From positions 233,023 to 297,022 of the forward strand of contig CBDCNQ010000004.1 in assembly GCA_965219445.1 (NCBI GenBank): 64,000 nt of DNA, given 5' to 3'. Shown piece by piece: positions 7,700-34,902 of the stretch. Source of the DNA: Longimicrobiales bacterium. Its GTDB lineage: Bacteria; Gemmatimonadota; Gemmatimonadetes; Longimicrobiales; Gaopeijiaceae. The notes under the pieces are model-generated. The model ran no database searches and was not told the origin of the DNA. It was given only the letters and a program-made list of their open reading frames with translations. The first letter of the stretch is position 1, and each line of letters begins with the position of its first letter. The translations under genes and the position numbers were made by a program.

Positions 7700-9599
7700 A
7701 TCGGGATAGGGGAGGACCGGCGTTCCCGGTCCTTCCCCTCCCACACCACCAGGCATGCGGGTCCGCACCTGGCGGTTCGGTGAGTTGAGGTCAGTACGGC
7801 GTGAGCCGGGGCACACCCAGCTCGTCGAAGTACGCCCCTGGCAAGGCCGTGTGCAGGGCGTGGTGCGCGGCCACGTGCCACCAGCTTCGCGCGAACCGAG
7901 CAGCTCGCCAGGCGAGGTTCTCGCTCACACCGCGAGCCCTCAACTCCCGGTACGCTGTCCTTCCCCGTTTCCACTGGCGTAATTGCAACGTACGCAGCCG
8001 GCGGTGGATCCATTGGTCCAGGTCTCGGAAAACCCCCGGTGTATCCGCTAAGCCGAAGTATGCCTTCCACCCCAGCACGTAGCGCCGTAGCTCTTCTGCC
8101 ACCTGTTGCAGGCTCCGCCCGCCACTCCGGCTTGTAATCTGCCGGACTCGCTCCTTGAACTTCGTCAGGGCCTTCTTGCTGACCCGGCGCTTCACGACCT
8201 TCCCTGCCGCTACCCAGAAGCTGTAGCCCAGGAACTGTCGATCCCACACTCGCGCCACCGCGCTCTTTTCCTCGTTGACCTGAAGCCGAAGTTTCCCGTA
8301 CAAGTGCCTCAGCGCCTGCATCACACGTTGTCCTGCCCGCCTCGACCGCACGTATACATTGCAGTCATCGGCGTACCGGACAAACGCGTGTCCGCGTAGC
8401 TCCAACTCCTTGTCCACTTCGTCCAGGAGCACGTTCGCCAGCAACGGCGACAACGGTCCGCCCTGAGGCGTCCCCATGTGCCGCTCCATCACCACCCCGT
8501 TCGCCATGACTCCGGCTTCCAGGTAGCGACGGAGGATCCGCAGCATCGCCTTATCCTCGATCCGCTTTGCCAGCCGCCCCATCAGCACGTCGTGGTTCAC
8601 CCGGTCGAAAAACTTCTCCAGGTCCACATCCACCACCCATCGTCTCCCTTCCTGGATGTATTGCTGCGCTTCGCGCACCGCATCGTGTGCTCGGCGCCCA
8701 GGCCGGAAGCCGTGGCTGTGCCGACTGAACGTCGGGTCGAACCTCGGTTGCAGCACCTGCAGGATGGCTTGTTGGATGAACCGGTCCAGCACGGTCGGAA
8801 TCCCCAACTCCCGGACCCCTCCCCCACTCTTCGGTATCTCCTGCCTTCGTACCGGCTTCGGTTGGTAGGTCCCCGCCAGCAACCGCTGTCGGATCTCCCC
8901 CCAGTGCCTGCGCAAGTACTCTGGCAGCTCCTCCACGTTCATCCCGTCGATGCCCGGACTGCCCTTATTCTGCCGCACGCGTTTCAACGCTCCTACGAGG
9001 TTGGCACGCCCGACCACCTCCTGCATCAGGAGATGCTCGCTTCCTGAGCGCTCGTCTCCATGGGCCACCGTTCCGGCTTCGCCACTCCCCTCTACCTTCG
9101 GGGCTTCACCCCTATCCTCCAGTGGGAGCCCCAGTTGCCTGGACTCCTGGCGCATGGCCTTGCCGAGGTCCACGGTCGTCACGCTCTCCTCTCCGTTCGG
9201 CCCTTCGTCCGACAAAGCTGGGTCCAAGCGCATCATGCACTTCGTCGGCCTACTATGGCCTCTGCTGACTTCTCGCTCCGCCGGCAGGCCCAACAGCGCA
9301 GTGCCGGCGTCACCCTTTCAGGCGTCAGGCGAGACCTCCCCGGGTAAGAACGATGACCTTCCCCGCACAATCGCCGGATCTACGCCGCTTCCCCTTGGTC
9401 GCAGGAGCTTCGCGGTCAGTGGTCCGCTCGCCCCGGTCCGCAGCGCCTCGTATCCGGTTCCTGTTCGTCGACTCACGGGTTCGTTTCACGCTTCGTTCAG
9501 CGTACGCCTCACGACGAACGCCTTGCGCTTCCCTTCGGTCCCTGCGACCAGGTTCCGGGAGGACTTTCACCTCCAAGTCATCGCCCATGCCGGGCCCAC
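7700..9599 (-). mobile_element. Group II intron (1900 nt) with RT/maturase ORF, sense-oriented inside the autotransporter gene
   Basis: The 5' end reads GTGGGCCCGGCATGGGCGATGACTTGGAGGTGAAAGTCC at 9599. A domain V-like hairpin with a 2-nt 3' bulge spans 7745-7776. A domain VI-like hairpin spans 7700-7742, has an unpaired A at 7707, and ends in ...GAT. The RT ORF lies in between. Confidence 0.85.
7791..9293 (-). CDS. Group II intron reverse transcriptase/maturase (no endonuclease domain seen)
   Basis: ORF 7791..9293 contains RVRQNKGSPGIDG, RRQEIPKSGGGVRELGIPTVLDRFIQQA, MGTPQGGPLSPLLANVLLDE, FVRYADDCNVYV (YADD) and a maturase X region (RYVLGWKAYFGLAD). The likely true start is M47 (nt 9155) or M20/M21. 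Confidence 0.9.
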   Translation of the reverse strand: MGLPAEREVSRGHSRPTKCMMRLDPALSDEGPNGEESVTTVDLGKAMRQESRQLGLPLEDRGEAPKVEGSGEAGTVAHGDERSGSEHLLMQEVVGRANLVGALKRVRQNKGSPGIDGMNVEELPEYLRRHWGEIRQRLLAGTYQPKPVRRQEIPKSGGGVRELGIPTVLDRFIQQAILQVLQPRFDPTFSRHSHGFRPGRRAHDAVREAQQYIQEGRRWVVDVDLEKFFDRVNHDVLMGRLAKRIEDKAMLRILRRYLEAGVMANGVVMERHMGTPQGGPLSPLLANVLLDEVDKELELRGHAFVRYADDCNVYVRSRRAGQRVMQALRHLYGKLRLQVNEEKSAVARVWDRQFLGYSFWVAAGKVVKRRVSKKALTKFKERVRQITSRSGGRSLQQVAEELRRYVLGWKAYFGLADTPGVFRDLDQWIHRRLRTLQLRQWKRGRTAYRELRARGVSENLAWRAARFARSWWHVAAHHALHTALPGAYFDELGVPRLTPY

Positions 9600-25896: not shown

Positions 25897-27654
25897 ATGA
25901 GATTCGACTTCGAGCACTTCAGAACCAAGATCGGTCGGAAAATCGTGGGCCTGTTCGTCCTTTGTGCCATCCTTCCGATGGCGACTCTGTCGTTGGTTTC
26001 CTATTTGAGGGTCGAGTCGGAGCTCCGTAATCGGAACACCGAAGTGATGAATTCGGGCGCGTCCAACACTCAGATGGGGGTTCTGGAAAGGCTCCAAGCC
26101 GTCGAGAGTGAGCTGATCCTCCTGGCCGCCTCTCCCGGCGTAGACCGTGCACTCGAAGGAACGGGCGATGCTCCGAGCGGGTCGGAGTCCCTGCGGCGGC
26201 TCAGCGCCCTGACGTTGGCTATGTCGGATGCGACCATTTCGATCCATGGCGACCTGACCGATACACCAGAGCTTCCTTCCGAGACGCTCGCCAATCTGGA
26301 CGGCGGCCAGAGCGCGTTGGCCGTGATCCTGGGTGCGGGTGGCAGGCCGGAGATCCTGATCGCACGTGCTCCTGCCGGAACGAGCACGGACGCCGGCATA
26401 CTCTGGGGGCGAATCATAGCCGACAGCCTCTGGGCCACGGCACAGGTATACGCCGTCGGCGTCGCCGCCAGCGAGATCGACCTTCAGGACGACAGCGGCT
26501 ACTGCGTGCTGGACGGGGCCCGGCGGCCCCTGGACTGTGCCGGGGCACTGGTGGCGTGGCTCTCCGGGGGGGTTCCCGAGGACATCGATATCCCGGAGAA
26601 CACCGTTCACGGAGCCCTCTCATGGGCCACCGACCAGACGCCGTATGCCGGCCACTACCGCCATCTGTTCTTGAGTGGCTTCAACAGCGACGACTGGACG
26701 ATCGTGCTCGCAAGAGACGAGCGAAGCGTACTGCAAGAGTTGGCGGAGTTCCGGAGAATACTGATCGGTTTCTTCGTGCTCACGGGTGCTTTGGTCCTAT
26801 TGTTCAGCGCCGGCGGCATTCGCCAAAGCATGGAGCCGCTGGCCAAGCTCCGGGAGGGTACCCGCCGGGTCGCCGCACAGGACTTCAGCACCCGCGTGCA
26901 CATTTCGAGTGGAGACGAGTTCGAGGAGCTGGCCGGATCCTTCAACGACATGGCGACCAAGGTCGGGACCCTGGTCGAGGAGTTGAAGGATCTCAACTGG
27001 AGCACGATCACGACGCTCGCCCGTACCATCGACGCGAAATCTCCCTGGACCGCGGGCCATTCAGAGCGCGTGTCCCAGATGTCTGTGGCGATCGCACGGG
27101 TTATGGGGTTGGGCGAGGCCGAGATTGAGCGGCTATATCGCGGCGGACTCCTCCACGACATCGGTAAGATCGGCGTACCCATCACGATCATCGACAAGAA
27201 GGGGCGGCTCACCGACGAGGAGATGGCCGTGATGCGGAGTCACGTAACCGTCGGCGCGAAGATTCTCGAGCCGCTCACTGCCCTCGAGGACGTGATACCG
27301 ATCGTTCTCTACCACCATGAACGCTTCGACGGCAAAGGGTATGAGGCCGGATTGGCCGGCACGGACATTCCTCGGTTGGCGCGGATCCTGTGCGTTGCGG
27401 ACAGCTACGACGCGATGCGCTCCGACCGGCCGTACCGTGCCGGAAGAAGCCCGGACGAGACGCTCGAGGAGATCGCTCTGTGCTCGGGAAGCCAGTTCGA
27501 TCCGGACGCCGTCCAGGCCTTCGTCGAGTATATGTCGTCGGAGGAAGGAGAGCTCGCGTCCACGGGGAAATTCTCGCAGCCCTTCGGCGTGCCTGCTGAA
27601 AAGCGTGTGAGGTCGTCGCGCACACTCGCTGGTGGCGAGAGGGTACCCGCGTGA
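25897..27654 (+). CDS. HD-GYP phosphodiesterase with TM sensor and HAMP domains
   Basis: ORF 25897..27654. Contains a HAMP-like region (VAAQDFSTRVHISSGDEFEELAGSFNDM), HSERVSQMSVAIA, LLHDIGKIGVP and HHERFDGKGY. Confidence 0.9.
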   Translation: MRFDFEHFRTKIGRKIVGLFVLCAILPMATLSLVSYLRVESELRNRNTEVMNSGASNTQMGVLERLQAVESELILLAASPGVDRALEGTGDAPSGSESLRRLSALTLAMSDATISIHGDLTDTPELPSETLANLDGGQSALAVILGAGGRPEILIARAPAGTSTDAGILWGRIIADSLWATAQVYAVGVAASEIDLQDDSGYCVLDGARRPLDCAGALVAWLSGGVPEDIDIPENTVHGALSWATDQTPYAGHYRHLFLSGFNSDDWTIVLARDERSVLQELAEFRRILIGFFVLTGALVLLFSAGGIRQSMEPLAKLREGTRRVAAQDFSTRVHISSGDEFEELAGSFNDMATKVGTLVEELKDLNWSTITTLARTIDAKSPWTAGHSERVSQMSVAIARVMGLGEAEIERLYRGGLLHDIGKIGVPITIIDKKGRLTDEEMAVMRSHVTVGAKILEPLTALEDVIPIVLYHHERFDGKGYEAGLAGTDIPRLARILCVADSYDAMRSDRPYRAGRSPDETLEEIALCSGSQFDPDAVQAFVEYMSSEEGELASTGKFSQPFGVPAEKRVRSSRTLAGGERVPA

Positions 27655-28100
27655 AACGCGACGCAGGGTACGCATCGTGCAAATGGTACGCATTGGGTGC
27701 CTTCCTCCTGATCGGCGCGTGTGGACGCCCAACCTTCGACGCACCTCCGGCGAGCATCGAGGGGAGGTGGACCACCGCCGACGACCCACGGTATGCGGAT
27801 CGCGCGTTCGAGATCACAGAAGATTTTCTCTATTTGCTACAAGGAGGAGACACGTTCGCGGTGCACAAGATTCGCGATGTGGAGGTGATCGATGACGACC
27901 TTCCCCGCTACACTATCGAGTATCGAGGAGACGAGGGTGACTTGTTCACCCTCCGTGTCTACCTGTCGCAGGAGGAGGGAGGCACCCTCTTCTTGGCAAA
28001 CCAGATGAATATGAAGTGGCGCAGAGACCCTGATGCCTCCGTGCCGTGGGGCGTACTCTTGGATTTAGAGAGAAACGAGGCGCCCCGATCCGGGTCGTAG
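27651..28100 (+). CDS. Hypothetical lipoprotein
   Basis: ORF 27651..28100. Has the lipobox LLIGAC. No family recognised. Confidence 0.5.
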   Translation: MKRDAGYASCKWYALGAFLLIGACGRPTFDAPPASIEGRWTTADDPRYADRAFEITEDFLYLLQGGDTFAVHKIRDVEVIDDDLPRYTIEYRGDEGDLFTLRVYLSQEEGGTLFLANQMNMKWRRDPDASVPWGVLLDLERNEAPRSGS

Positions 28101-28253: not shown

Positions 28254-29213
28254 ATGGAGCAGCGCGAGCCGGATCGTCTCGTCCACGGGGCCCTCGCAGG
28301 TGCGGTGGCGGGCATCGTGGTGGTTATCTGGTTCCTTGTGATGGATATGGTCGCAGGCCATCCGTTCGACACTCCCGCACGCCTCTCGAGCGCCGTGTTA
28401 CGGACCGAGTTCAGCGGACCGTTGCCACGCCTGATGATGCTCTATACGGTCCTTCATTTCGGAGTATTTATCGCGCTCGGGGTGGCGGCGACGTGGACCC
28501 TCGAAGTGCTCCGGATCCAGCCGGGGCTTGTGGTAGGCGGCGTGTTCGCGGTCGGCGTTCTCAACACGGTTCATTATGTGGGCCTACTCGTGACCGGAAC
28601 CAACCTTCTCACCATCGTCCCGATTCAGCAGGTGGCCGCGGCCAACCTCCTCGGCGGCACGCTGATGATGGCGTACCTACACCGGGCTCTCGGCTCCGAG
28701 GAGCCCTTCGGATGGAATGTGCTCCGGCGATACCCAGTCCTCTTCGAGGGCTTCGGAACGGGCCTAGTGGGGGCGGCCGCAGTCGCCGTCTGGTTCCTGA
28801 TCGTTGATCTATTGGCCGGCTCTCCACTCCATACACCTGCCGCGCTGGGGTCGGCCGTGCTTCTCGGCGCTGAGAACGCCACCGAAATCGAGCTCAATGT
28901 GGCCGTCGTGGCCGTGTACTCGCTCCTCCACCTATCCGTGTTCATCACCGTCGGGATGGGCTTTTCTTGGATGGTCCAGGAGCTACACGGGGCATTGGCA
29001 TTCGGGGTACGCGCCCTCATCGTACTGCTCGTCATGGAGGGCCTGTTCATCGGGTCGGTCGGCATGGTAAACAGCTGGATCGTCCAGGAAATCGGATGGG
29101 TGAGCATCTTGGTGGCCAACGTCCTGGCCGTAGCCGGCATGAGCGGTTGGATTTGGCAGCACCACCCCGACATCCGACGCCGAAAGGCATCCAGCGCACC
29201 GGTCGGAGTTTGA
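28254..29213 (+). CDS. Hypothetical polytopic membrane protein with internal duplication
   Basis: ORF 28254..29213. The two halves align: AGAVAGIVVVIWFLVMDMVAGHPFDTPARLSSAVL with VGAAAVAVWFLIVDLLAGSPLHTPAALGSAVL, and YTVLHFGVFIALG with YSLLHLSVFITVG. Confidence 0.6.
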   Translation: MEQREPDRLVHGALAGAVAGIVVVIWFLVMDMVAGHPFDTPARLSSAVLRTEFSGPLPRLMMLYTVLHFGVFIALGVAATWTLEVLRIQPGLVVGGVFAVGVLNTVHYVGLLVTGTNLLTIVPIQQVAAANLLGGTLMMAYLHRALGSEEPFGWNVLRRYPVLFEGFGTGLVGAAAVAVWFLIVDLLAGSPLHTPAALGSAVLLGAENATEIELNVAVVAVYSLLHLSVFITVGMGFSWMVQELHGALAFGVRALIVLLVMEGLFIGSVGMVNSWIVQEIGWVSILVANVLAVAGMSGWIWQHHPDIRRRKASSAPVGV

Positions 29214-29282
29214 GCTACGGCACTTCACGCAGCCTCACGTTCCCGCTGGGGCCTCCGCCCCGGCACAAACCACGGAGGATCA

Positions 29283-30071
29283 ATGACCGCACCCAGTGTA
29301 CCCACCGTACCGAATGTGGACCGGGATGTCCTTCGAGAAGCGATCCAAGAGGAGTACGAGGTGGTCGCCTGCGAGCCCCGGCGTGGGTTCCACTTTCACA
29401 CGGGCCGGCCGCTCGCCGAGATCCTGGGCTATCAGGAGGAGTGGCTCGACGGATTACCCGATGGCTCCATCGAGTCGTTCGCGGGCACGGGTAACCCGTT
29501 CAGTCTGGGAGCGTTGGCCCCCGAAGAGCAGGTCGTGGACATCGGCTGTGGCGCCGGCATCGACTCCCTCATCGCCGCAAGGATGGTCGGCCCGGAGGGG
29601 GCAGTGATCGGCGTCGACATGACGCCCTCCATGCTCGAAAAAGCGAAAGCCGGGGCAAAGGATCTGGACCACGTGGAATTCCGGCTCGGGTTCGGCGAGG
29701 AGCTTCCCCTACCGGACGGATGGGCGGATGTCGTGATCTCCAACGGCGTCGTGAACCTGATGCCGGACAAGCATGAGGCCTTCACCGAGATGGCGCGGGT
29801 GCTCAAGCCCGGGGGGCGCATTCAGATCGGTGATATCCTCGTTGACCGACCCGTGCCCGAAAACTCCAAGGAGGATATCGAACTCTGGACCGGCTGAATC
29901 GCGGGTGCTCTGCTGGAAGCAGAGCTCAAAGCCACGGTCGTGGCTGCGGGATTCACGGACTTCGAGATCACCTGGCGGGCTGACGTATTCAAGGGAGCTC
30001 CCCAGCAGTCGAGCGCGGCGAAGTTCGGAACGAGCGGAATCAACTACCGAGCAACGAAGGCGGCCAGCTGA
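29283..30071 (+). CDS. ArsM-like class I SAM methyltransferase with in-frame TGA (candidate Sec) at 29895-29897
   Basis: ORF 29283..29897 contains VVDIGCGAGIDSLIAARMVGPEGAVIGVDMTPSML and LKPGGRIQIGD, and ends ELWTG-TGA. The same frame continues IAGALLEAELKATVVAAGFTDFEITWRADVF to a TGA at 30069-30071. The TGA sits where homologues I recall have the GC(I/V)xGA cysteine. Confidence 0.7.
29907..29925 (+). promoter_or_regulatory. Hairpin 9 nt downstream of the in-frame TGA (SECIS-like candidate)
   Basis: GCTCTGC-TGGAA-GCAGAGC: a perfect 7-bp stem (8 bp with the T-A pair) and a G-containing apical loop. The loop begins 16-17 nt after the TGA. Confidence 0.4.
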
Positions 30072-30254
30072 ATGGACAGACGGACCCTGCTCAAAACCGG
30101 TACCCTGGGCGTCCTGGGACTGGGACTCGGCGGGTGCGCGACGGGATCGGGTCGGAGCGGCTCGCTGGTCTTCGCCTCTATCCATGCGGCCCTCCTTCAG
30201 GACTTCCCCCACCGGCCTATAATCGATCCTGGAACGGTGATCCGTAGGCCCTGA
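30072..30254 (+). CDS. Possible 60-aa Tat-signal lipoprotein, or an N-terminal gene remnant
   Basis: ORF 30072..30254 starts MDRRTLLKTGTLGVLGLGLGGCATG (twin-Arg plus lipobox). Its ATG abuts the methyltransferase stop. It is short and is followed by a convergent gene. Confidence 0.3.
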   Translation: MDRRTLLKTGTLGVLGLGLGGCATGSGRSGSLVFASIHAALLQDFPHRPIIDPGTVIRRP

Positions 30255-32373: not shown

Positions 32374-33073
32374 TTGCCTATGCTCAACTGGACAGCCAGT
32401 ATGGTGCAGTCCCATTCGCATCAACTGAGAGCGTCCTCTATTAAACTCTCTGCCTTGGCCGCGTCACCTATTATTGGCTTGCTAGCCCTATTCTTGATTA
32501 CTCCGGACGTATACGCGCAGTGTGACTTGCTGGCCGAAGGCTCCGAGATGGTTTCGGGTATCGTTTATGATGACCTCAATCAGGACGGACGGCACGGTTC
32601 CGGGGAGCCCGGCGTTGCGCGTGTGAGCGTCAGCAATGGCTGTGACGTGGTTCTGACGAACTTGGATGGCCTTTACGAAATAACTCTGGCGCCGGGACAG
32701 ATACTCTTCTTATCTCAACCAACTGGATACGTGGTACCTGTTGACGACAACAACCAGCCCCTCTTCTTCTATACTCACTATCCTGACGGCACCCCCACAA
32801 CGATTGGCGGCACTCCAGTGCAATGGCTGTGGCCGGTTATAGGACCCACCGGCCCGCTTCCCGACAACATCGATTTCCCCCTGCATAGACTCAGTTCGCA
32901 GGAAATCCGGTTTACCACTCATGCTTTTGCGGATCCACAGGCTCGCAGTGATCTCGGCGAGGACATGTTGCGAGAGGAGCTGGTGAATACCCTGCTGGGC
33001 AATCCGTATCAGGCAGAGTTTTCGCTCACCGTAGGTGACGTGGTCTTTGATAATCTCGGCCTTTACCGGAACC
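32374..33073 (+). pseudogene. Metallophosphoesterase, 5' part (interrupted by an IS fragment)
   Basis: ORF 32374..33132 has a signal peptide, an N-terminal beta domain and FADPQARSD...TVGDVVFDNLGLYRN. After 33073 the reading becomes IS sequence. Confidence 0.75.
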
Positions 33074-33876
33074 TGTCAACGCCAGTGAGACACTCTTGGA
33101 AATCAATTAGAGAGCAATCTCCTGTGTCGTGAGGGATGGGGTGGGAGGATTGATCCAGACGGCCTCCGGGAGTGGTTTAGGCTTCGGCTCACCGGAGACG
33201 AAGCGCTCGGGATGAGCGGCCCATGCCTCACGGAGCACGGCCTTCCTGCAGGCGATGATCCGATCGGCGTGACCGAAGTGGACCTGTTCGGGGGTCAGCA
33301 TCGAGATGCCGCCATGGCGGTGCTCGGCATTATACCAACGGAAGAACGAGCGACAGAAGGTCTTGGCTTGCCCCTGATCCCCGAACCGGCCGGGAAACGA
33401 GGGATGGTACTTCAAGGTCTTGAACTGAGCCTCGGAGAACGGATTGTCATCCGAGACCTGGGGTCGGCCCAACGAGCGGGTCACGCCGAGATCGGCGAGT
33501 AGTTGAGCCGTGCATTGGCTCGTCATCGGAGCCCCTCGATCGGAATGCAGGGTCAGGAGGTGGGGCTGGACGCCATGCTTCAAGCAACTCTGCTGGATCA
33601 GCCGGCTGGCCAGGGCAGAGTTCTCCCGATCCGCCACCATCCATCCCACGACGTAGCGGCTGAAGATGTCCAGGATCACGTAGAGGTAGAAGTAACTCCA
33701 CTTCTTCGGCCCCAGCAGCCGGGTGATATCCCAGGACCAGACCTGGTTCGGGCCCCTCGCCATCAACTCGGGCTTCTGGTATTTGGGATGACTCCGCTGC
33801 GCTCGACGCTCCTGAACCGGCACCTGGGAAGCCAGAACGCGATACATCGTACGCTCGCTGCACAGGTAGACGTCCC
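33074..33876 (-). mobile_element. 5'-truncated IS3-family element (orfB remnant only)
   Basis: ORF 33107..33952 contains PNQVWSWDITRL, LTLHSDRGAPMTS, VSDDNPFSEAQFKTLKY and YNAEHRHGGI (DDE/rve). The terminal TGTCAACGCCAGTGAGACAC at 33074 looks like an IS end. There is no orfA and no N-terminus of orfB. Confidence 0.8.
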
Positions 33877-34902
33877 CTCTTTGGGATTGACTCTTACGAG
33901 TCTCCCAATGCCCACTATGCCACCGAAACCTACAAGAAGCACTTTGGCCCAACCTATTATTCGTTCAATTATGGGAATGTACATGTCGTTGCTCTAAACA
34001 ACGTTGAGTACGCTGGAGCAGGACGACGCATCTCCGGCAACTTGGTTTATCGTGGGTTTATTCCAGACGATCAGATGCTTTGGCTCGAGCGAGATCTCGC
34101 TCATGTCGATGAAGACAAGCTCATCGTGATTGCCACTCACATTTCACTGATCAGTGAAGCCTCCGACGGCGATCCATCTCATGACGTAACTGGCCCCCAT
34201 ACCGATAACTTCGACCAACTGCTGGAACTCCTGCGTCCATTCGACAACGTCTTTGGCCTTGCCGGACACGATACCAGCAACAGCTGGAAGGTGGAGATTA
34301 ACCATGAGCACGGCTGGACTGGTCGGCCATGGATAGCCCATACCCTGGCCGAAGTCCGCGGCAGTGGCTGGACCAGAGGCCCGAGAGATCTACGCGGCGT
34401 GGCGGAGGCCATGATGGAGGACGGAAACCCGAACGGTTTCTATCTGTTGAAATTCGACGACGTGACATTGGTCCCGGAGTTCATTCCATTTCCTTTCGGG
34501 AGAGACGCGGCACAGCGTTTGCGTATTGTCCTGGATCCAGAGCTCGAAGACACCGCTGATAGCAGCATCAACCGGGGTATATTACAAAGGGATACCAAGG
34601 TGGTAGTCAATCTCTTCGACGGGGGCGAACGCGACAGAGTGAGCTTATCCCTGGACGGCGGCCGACTGATGCCGATGCGCTATGTGGTTCGAACCGACCC
34701 CTTCATGGAAAAAGCCTACAGGCGGCTTGCTGACACTCAGGACGCCTTTCCGAGGCCAGCAGCCTCATCACACATCTGGGAATTCGACTTGCCAGAAAAC
34801 CTCGAACCGGGAATACACACCGTCGTGGTCGAAACCGAAGATGAGTTTGAGCAGCACCAACGCGGGGTTCTGTCGTTTGAGGTCACTGGGGCGGCGCGGT
34901 GA
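33874..34902 (+). pseudogene. Metallophosphoesterase, 3' part
   Basis: Own reading from 33874: PLFGIDSYESPNAHYATETYKKHFGPTYYSFNYGNVHVVALNN. This continues into ORF 34042..34902 (LIVIATHISL...GLAGHDTSNSW). The expected GNHD-containing segment between the two parts is missing. Confidence 0.75.

Follow-up and report, generated by a model that had tools for sequence, protein, structure and literature searches.

Does the TGA at positions 29895-29897 end an ArsM-like methyltransferase, or does it place a selenocysteine (Sec) inside one? The question is raised by a 64,000-nucleotide stretch of DNA from a Longimicrobiales bacterium (contig CBDCNQ010000004.1), referred to here as a whole as the window. 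On its forward strand, an open reading frame (ORF) at 29283-29897 ends with ...KEDIELWTG-TGA, and the same frame then stays open for 57 more codons (IAGALLEAELKATVVAAGFTDFEITWRADVF...KAAS), up to a TGA at 30069-30071. Gene callers stop the protein at 204 residues, in this DNA as in almost every related public record. Once the UGA is read as Sec, the annotated fragment becomes a complete enzyme of 262 residues. An earlier note on this DNA had pointed out the TGA after ELWTG and the 57 open codons, and had left the choice between a candidate selenoprotein and a very recent nonsense mutation. Translation of the ORF confirmed the frame, and the comparisons described below make it very probable that the TGA is a genuine Sec codon served by a selenocysteine insertion sequence (SECIS).

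Conservation of the TGA and of the frame behind it

TGA was found at the Sec column in 52 of 53 loci of the subfamily. These were 51 species-representative genomes, recovered in a scan of a genome collection, and L081, a 3.56-Mb contig of the European Nucleotide Archive that comes from another assembly and is 99.95% identical to the window; the remaining locus has Ser. The TGA-bearing lineages represent at least seven phyla and include Longimicrobiales/Gemmatimonadota, Terriglobia/Acidobacteriota/Vicinamibacterales, Actinomycetota, Beta- and Deltaproteobacteria, Dehalococcoidales/Anaerolineales/Thermomicrobiaceae (Chloroflexota) and Neomarinimicrobiota (Marinimicrobiota). When metagenomes were scanned with a Cys form as seed, TGA forms were still the majority, and about 30 metagenome TGA loci were obtained. 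Genomes and metagenomes together yielded 79 distinct Sec-type sequences, all 79 with TGA, which also stands in 63 of 63 aligned Sec-type genes. The window and L081 differ at seven single bases, two of which lie within the signals of the gene. One is position 29277 in the Shine-Dalgarno-like GGAGGA (G in the window, C in L081), and the other, at 29937, is described with the hairpins.

The earlier note had asked for an alignment with homologues, which showed the expected Sec/Cys pairs next to the TGA orthologues in 51 genomes. Among the 120 closest proteins in a collection of 5.8 billion, about 96 were called at a length of 201-245 residues, all ending ...LWTG. The full-length proteins in this set are 65-71% identical to the window protein and mostly read LWTG-C-IAGA at the Sec column (P0044, P0070, P0075, P0096, P0110, P0118 and others). 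At the DNA level the Cys codon is TGC or TGT (L082, L088, L091, L099, L141-146). Within the subfamily, Cys forms are rarer than Sec forms. The C-terminal 57 residues of the window protein, which ends ...ATKAAS-stop, align with the Cys homologues. In close relatives, the ratio of nonsynonymous to synonymous polymorphism (pN/pS) was 0.10-0.26 for codons +1 to +52 past the TGA and 0.14-0.27 for the codons upstream of it, indicating that the frame downstream of the TGA is under purifying selection. An AlphaFold model of the Cys homologue P0044, which is 68% identical to the window protein, had a predicted local distance difference test score (pLDDT) of 85 and a predicted template modelling score (pTM) of 0.84. 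It places two core beta strands and two helices C-terminal to the Cys/Sec position; with 204 residues, the fold would therefore be incomplete.

The terminal stop is abutted by an ATG at 30072 (TGAATG), which lies in the same frame as the selenoprotein gene. The earlier note had taken this junction as a sign that the longer frame is the one translated. The junction is real and is kept in the relatives L001, L004 and L005; as evidence for the long frame it says little by itself.

Several subfamily members vary at or near the Sec column. Ser (TCA) is found in L051:545, from a metagenome-assembled genome (MAG) of Udaeobacter, and Tyr and Arg in P0064 and P0119; these copies are possibly inactivated or functionally shifted. 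Two Joint Genome Institute (JGI) gene calls, P0073 and P0100 (locus L147), show Trp in the protein and TGA in the DNA. Translation of L147 under code 11 does not give the deposited JGI protein, so the codon was read with a different genetic code, which masks the selenoprotein. An additional Cys located 8 residues upstream (for example SAVCNIDLWTGC), or a TusA domain at the C-terminus, is a frequent gain of the Cys forms. TusA fusions were found in Sec forms too. Many subfamily members are also extended at the C-terminus by a segment that includes a conserved 'CE[V/I]P' Cys, which the window protein does not have. These variations are drawn from the proteins P0044, P0070, P0079, P0085, P0107, P0108, P0112-P0114 and P0118, from P0075, P0096 and P0120, and from the loci L093, L095 and L097-L101.

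Hairpins behind the TGA and the decoding of UGA

Nine nucleotides past the TGA, the perfect hairpin GCTCTGC-TGGAA-GCAGAGC described in the earlier note was found again at 29907-29925 (hairpin 1). Its stem has 7-8 bp, and the apical loop is 16 nt away from the UGA. The fold energy of hairpin 1 was -11.7 kcal/mol (z = -3.6), a value equalled by 1 of 200 shuffles. For the 66 nt from the UGA onward it was -31.1 kcal/mol (z = -3.85), which none of 200 shuffles equalled. According to the bacterial SECIS (bSECIS) model of Zhang & Gladyshev, such an element has a loop of 3-9 nt, a stem of 4-16 bp, a loop sequence N1-G-[G/U]-N-N2, a spacing of 16-37 nt and a minimum free energy of at most -7.5 kcal/mol (summarized in PMC13188914). 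Hairpin 1 lies within every one of these limits, and the SECIS-compatible geometry proposed in the note is borne out by them. With the fdhF prototype of bacterial SECIS elements it shares a position in the coding region just 3' of the UGA and a small apical loop in which G-G follows an optional closing pair. It differs from the prototype in its unrelated sequence and in the presence of two adjacent hairpins in the clade of the window, and its SECIS role is a predicted one.

Pairing was analyzed in a gap-free alignment of 52 sequences, namely the window, L081 and 50 other genomes. In the 7-bp helix of hairpin 1, 97.8% of the cells were paired, and double-sided changes occurred at two pairs (UA/GC at one; GC/UA/CG, plus GU, at the other). 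Hairpin 1 was the only consensus structure that RNAalifold recovered. Among the 79 distinct Sec sequences, 72 keep at least 6 of the 7 pairs, with CG/GC and CG/UA as additional compensatory types, and the remaining 7 have stronger alternative stem-loops in the same place (-17.6 to -28.2 kcal/mol). An outer stem between the UGA and a GAUUCA about 50 nt downstream was considered and discarded, since its bases are largely set by Gly-Phe-Thr codons and it is not part of the consensus fold.

Synonymous codon choice within hairpin 1 is strongly restricted. Ala+4 is GCT in 59 of 60 cases and Ala+8 is GCA in 47 of 51, compared with background shares of 17% and 13% of Ala codons in Sec-type genes; Leu+5 is CTG in 57 of 63 and Glu+9 is GAG in 58 of 61. 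Codon entropy at these sites was 0.12-0.59; at 71 other conserved sites of the fourfold or sixfold class it averaged 1.68 and never fell below 0.70. In addition, changes in the stem couple Ala to Gly or Glu replacements (GCA to GGA or GAA) with silent compensation in the Leu codon (CUG to CUC or CUU). Cys-form genes have kept 2-7 of the 7 pairs, in most cases 2-5, compared with a mean of 6.67 in 82 Sec loci, and the local folds are weaker than those of Sec forms. Judged from these sequences, hairpin 1 is maintained by compensatory and synonymous-site selection.

Across many phyla, the UGA, the reading frame and hairpin 1 are under joint selection, and Sec stands in the column of Cys224 of CmArsM. 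The selenoprotein reading of the earlier note is supported by the conservation of the TGA, by the Cys found at its column, by purifying selection downstream and by the conserved SECIS hairpin. The SelB-GTP-Sec-tRNA(Sec)/SECIS route is the established mechanism of Sec decoding in bacteria. At this locus, a ribosome arriving at UGA 29895-29897 would meet hairpin 1 as the bacterial SECIS of the mRNA. The hairpin would recruit SelB-GTP-Sec-tRNA(Sec), Sec would be inserted without termination, and translation would run on to the real stop at 30069-30071. A second hairpin immediately downstream (hairpin 2, core 29931-29944), which the earlier note does not mention, would probably assist this process or act as an alternative SelB site in this clade.

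Three results weigh against a Sec codon with hairpin 1 as its SECIS. The spacing of 16 nt is the lower bound of the bSECIS range. A search of Rfam around the site, at the gathering threshold and at E values up to 10, returned no SECIS-type family and one chance match to a small RNA, which leaves the consensus model and conservation as the grounds for calling it a SECIS. Finally, neither selA, selB, selD nor a tRNA-Sec gene was detected in the 64 kb of the window or in the DNA flanking some 80 related loci, as searched with ARAGORN on the window and 51 loci and with tblastn using approximate sequences of E. coli SelA, SelB and SelD; the sole tblastn match was an elongation factor-like one in L073.

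What else could the TGA be? If it were a recent nonsense mutation or an assembly error, leaving a pseudogene or a truncated 204-residue protein, the calls of 204 residues and the lack of Sec machinery in the window would be accounted for. Such an origin has practically no probability left, given that the same TGA is shared by 51 species-level genomes spanning at least seven phyla, by 79 distinct sequences overall and by the nearly identical contig of another assembly, and that the codons behind it are under purifying selection and encode two core beta strands. A shared contaminant as the source of the related loci is ruled out by their divergence of 45-92%. The same conservation disposes of the very recent nonsense mutation considered in the earlier note. 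A further possibility is recoding of the UGA without Sec, either through a reassigned code (TGA as Trp or Gly) or through hairpin-stimulated insertion of Trp or Cys by a near-cognate or suppressor tRNA. Downstream RNA structures can in general stimulate read-through. Such recoding would agree with the Trp in the two JGI calls and with the Sec machinery being seen neither in the window nor in the flanks of the loci. In the window, however, TGA ends 13 of 23 long ORFs, among them the selenoprotein gene itself, and is the commonest stop, which excludes a reassigned code; the lineages concerned are not known to use alternative codes. Moreover, homologues substitute Cys, the signature of Sec/Cys pairs, and not Trp or Gly, hairpin 1 agrees with the SECIS consensus of the SelB type, G-G loop included, and ArsM-type Sec proteins are already established. 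We therefore regard recoding without Sec as very improbable.

With the TGA read as a Sec codon, it can still be asked which structure SelB would bind. Hairpin 1 overlaps a conserved peptide (ALLEAEL) and might be a mere by-product of it, the SelB element then being hairpin 2 or another structure. In hairpin 2, one pair alternates between CG and GC (18:18), the codons ACG for Thr and GUC for Val are constrained, and the loop GGUC is that of the E. coli fdhF SECIS. On the other hand, hairpin 2 is intact in only 38 of the 79 Sec sequences and its loop begins 38 nt past the UGA, 1 nt outside the 16-37 nt range. The G/C difference at position 29937 turns this loop into GCUC in the near-identical L081, and also changes Val to Leu. 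By contrast, hairpin 1 or a stronger substitute occurs at the same place in all 79 sequences, and it is lost in most Cys forms with similar peptides. Its otherwise rare Ala codons GCU and GCA are near-invariant. Because amino-acid changes in its stem are coupled to silent compensating ones, it is not simply a by-product of the peptide. We consider a by-product improbable; in our reading hairpin 1 is the SECIS, with hairpin 2 probably an accessory or alternative element.

A second Sec of the UXPK-star type, reached through the in-frame ORF that follows TGA 30069-30071, was also considered and rejected. There is no UXPK pattern, the protein has the same end point as its Cys homologues, and the next ORF is a separate oxidoreductase gene with a twin-arginine translocation (Tat) signal in relatives. 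No UXPK-stop was found in any of about 100 related loci. A scan of the coding potential of the window for other in-frame TGA candidates gave none that was convincing, and a literature search on Sec use in Gemmatimonadota returned nothing useful. The Sec reading flags Longimicrobiales/Gemmatimonadota, many Acidobacteriota, Chloroflexota and others as probable users of Sec.

Active-site columns, relation to ArsM and substrate

The window protein matches the Pfam families Methyltransf_31/11/25, with methyltransferase domains spanning residues 81-211. Its top sequence matches in the PDB are ArsM proteins, and identity to canonical ArsM/AS3MT is about 27-32%. When the P0044 model was compared with the PDB by Foldseek, CrArsM, CmArsM and human AS3MT were the best matches (TM-score 0.65-0.70). 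Active-site columns were assigned from a phmmer alignment to solved ArsM structures (PDB 4kw7/4fr0). As the earlier note had proposed, the TGA falls on a conserved ArsM Cys, which this alignment identifies as CmArsM Cys224. The note was also right that the other two canonical cysteines are missing: Thr69 stands at Cys72 and Gly155 at Cys174. ArsM proteins are defined by at least three of four conserved cysteines (CmArsM C44, C72, C174 and C224; PMC5552862). In the window protein the C224 column alone is kept, as Sec, and its Cys30 is not conserved across the subfamily. Subfamily alignments showed the invariant signatures GFHFHTGR, SFAGTG-PF, ISNG and APQ--SA--FGT-G-N.

Sec-containing enzymes of this type are not new. 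An ArsM-type Sec family with the motif UxxG is listed among the known prokaryotic selenoproteins and credited to Fomenko et al. 2007 Science (review PMC13188914), and the selenoproteome of the Global Ocean Sampling (GOS) survey counted 8 Sec sequences against 245 Cys homologues for ArsM (Zhang & Gladyshev 2008, PMC2398784). Sec-containing ArsM-type methyltransferases have thus been known since 2007-2008, and the window gene adds another member. It has in common with Sec-ArsM of the PRK11873 type a UGA at the catalytic or As-binding Cys column followed by xxG, a downstream SECIS and the occurrence of Sec/Cys pairs. In contrast to these, the branch of the window has no equivalents of Cys72 and Cys174 and scores under the PRK11873 cut-off. 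Whereas the GOS survey of ArsM was dominated by Cys forms, Sec forms far outnumber Cys forms in this branch. NCBIfam holds three Sec-specific ArsM-type models, which score best for the methyltransferase part and share the UxxG Sec motif. The best four NCBIfam models all remained below their cut-offs: NF041537 (ArsM/AhpD selenoprotein) gave 238 bits against 510, NF008823 (PRK11873, generic ArsM) 213.6 against 263, NF047649 (methyltransferase/UXPK-star double selenoprotein) 213.5 against 460 and NF041536 (ArsM/DUF2284 selenoprotein) 212 against 575. Unlike the proteins described by the three Sec-specific models, the window protein lacks AhpD and DUF2284 domains, a second Sec and a UXPK-stop at its C-terminus. 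With canonical ArsM/AS3MT (CmArsM 4FS8/4FR0/4KW7, CrArsM 5EVJ, human AS3MT 8XT7) it shares a Rossmann-type core binding S-adenosylmethionine (SAM) and the C224 column in a GxxGA context. It differs from them in having Sec there, in the added N-terminal GFHFHTGR and in the absence of the C-terminal domain.

We infer from these columns that Sec205 is a substrate-binding or nucleophilic residue beside the methyl group of SAM, where it would bind the acceptor. Of three arsenic-binding chalcogens one is kept, as selenium in almost every sampled species, which suggests that Sec is functionally important and hard to replace. Most likely, one chalcogen ligand is enough to bind the substrate of the enzyme, and As(OH)3 is unlikely to be this substrate because the other two As(III) ligands are replaced by Thr69 and Gly155. 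Plausible candidates are the sulfur or selenium of a persulfide or perselenide, selenide, or an already methylated arsenical. The suggestion of the earlier note that Sec is the sole catalytic chalcogen and that the substrate is perhaps not arsenite fits both the alignment and the gene neighbourhoods, and is still an inference.

Gene neighbourhoods were compared at about 54 loci whose flanks could be used. The genes that recurred were DsrE (15 loci, directly downstream), OsmC (13, upstream) and ArsR-rhodanese regulators (12), and not ars genes. A different arrangement was seen in an Actinomycetota MAG (JALZFP010000196.1, L017:2836-7003), where a five-gene cluster comprises a canonical ArsM (299 residues, with all conserved cysteines), the Sec-type methyltransferase, an ArsR-like regulator, a flavin monooxygenase-like ORF (judged by eye) and an ArsR-rhodanese fusion. 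Here, the Sec-type gene lies after the canonical arsM-arsR-monooxygenase genes, and both kinds of methyltransferase coexist.

Is the protein then a bona fide arsenite methyltransferase, in which Sec simply replaces Cys224? Its nearest relatives in sequence and fold are ArsM/AS3MT, some sources label homologues 'arsenite methyltransferase', and in L017 2.5 kb lie between the gene and the canonical arsM-arsR cluster. Given this ars-type cluster, the Sec-type methyltransferase may have an arsenic-related role. Yet the equivalents of Cys72 and Cys174 are invariantly Thr and Gly, so that three of the four cysteines cannot be reached, and the PRK11873 score is under the cut-off. The ArsM C-terminal domain is missing (262 residues, against about 320-390 in the solved chains). 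There are no ars genes beside the gene in the window, the recurrent neighbours elsewhere being DsrE, OsmC, ArsR-rhodanese and TusA, and the presence of a canonical ArsM in L017 argues for a non-redundant function. An arsenite methyltransferase is in our view unlikely, though worth keeping in mind. As a tentative alternative, we propose a widespread, mainly Sec-dependent sister family of ArsM that is not an arsenite methyltransferase and is recognized by the signature GFHFHTGR / FAGTG / ISNG / LWTG-U-IAGA. Relay proteins of the DsrE/TusA/rhodanese/OsmC type, seen as neighbours and fusions, might supply the single selenol of this family with sulfane sulfur, selenium or a mono-ligand methylated arsenical, and the acceptor would be methylated from SAM. 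If this proposal is true, a persulfide, perselenide or selenide methyltransferase is annotated as a protein of about 204 residues in dozens of distant genomes. With a sulfur or selenium species as substrate, the family would tie selenoprotein biology to the production of methylated chalcogens. Caution is also advisable before genes of this branch are counted as arsM in environmental surveys of arsenic methylation.

Neighbouring genes and other features of the window

The features of the locus are compiled in Table 1. The neighbours in the window, an HD-GYP protein, two ORFs without Pfam match and a truncated Tat-signal oxidoreductase, offer no functional clue. The 319-residue membrane protein adjoins the methyltransferase gene only in L002 and L081. 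Synteny of this protein, the 149-residue ORF and the HD-GYP protein is limited to close Longimicrobiales, and they were for this reason rejected as conserved operon partners. The 60-residue ORF has the Tat motif DRRTLLK and the lipobox LGGC. Its homologue in L001 is a 416-residue ORF with the Pfam domain DAO, of which only about the first 41-60 residues are recognizable in the window, most of the gene being deleted. This oxidoreductase gene follows the methyltransferase in the Longimicrobiales loci L001-L005, and in L001, L004 and L005 it adjoins the stop.

Table 1. Features of the selenoprotein locus and its neighbours, in window coordinates
Feature	Position	Strand	Basis or remark
149-residue ORF, no Pfam match	27651-28100	+	precedes the 319-residue membrane protein
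Multi-pass membrane protein, 319 residues, no Pfam match	28254-29213	+	immediately upstream of the methyltransferase
Shine-Dalgarno-like GGAGGA	29274-29279	+	sequence; 3 nt 5' of ATG
Predicted selenoprotein gene, ArsM-like class I SAM methyltransferase, 262 residues, Sec205	29283-30071	+	translation; Pfam; full-length Cys homologues align end to end; pN/pS
Invariant His37-Phe38-His39 of the subfamily signature GFHFHTGR	29391-29399	+	16- and 28-sequence alignments
Thr69 codon, column of As(III)-binding CmArsM Cys72	29487-29489	+	FYGCG vs FAGTG; FAGTG invariant in subfamily
SAM-binding motif I (VVDIGCGAGIDS)	29532-29567	+	aligns to ArsM motif I; Pfam methyltransferase domains
Gly155 codon, column of As(III)-binding CmArsM Cys174	29745-29747	+	ISNCVxNL vs ISNGVVNL; ISNG invariant in subfamily
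UGA, predicted Sec205, motif U-I-A-G (UxxG), CmArsM Cys224 column	29895-29897	+	LYGECLGGAL vs LWTG-U-IAGAL
Predicted SECIS element, hairpin 1: stem GCUCUGC/GCAGAGC, loop UGGAA	29907-29925	+	fold energy, covariation, synonymous constraint, bSECIS criteria
Hairpin 2, (A)GCCAC-GGUC-GUGGC(U), core 29931-29944	29930-29945	+	-8.5 kcal/mol; clade-specific
60-residue ORF, remnant of a Tat-signal DAO-type flavin adenine dinucleotide (FAD) oxidoreductase, separate from the selenoprotein	30072-30254	+	homology to L001 ORF

Two mobile elements were observed elsewhere in the window. A group II intron on the minus strand (7791-9518) has Rfam D1-D4 matches at 9200-9288 and 9348-9518 and carries a 500-residue reverse-transcriptase/maturase ORF (7791-9293). 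It sits between two ORFs of about 977 residues that resemble repeat-rich surface proteins. An insertion of about 830 nt (33067-33893) with an IS3-like transposase (integrase-core) ORF at 33107-33952 on the minus strand is absent from L081. At its site, a gene for a 581-residue metallophosphoesterase is split in the window and intact in L081.

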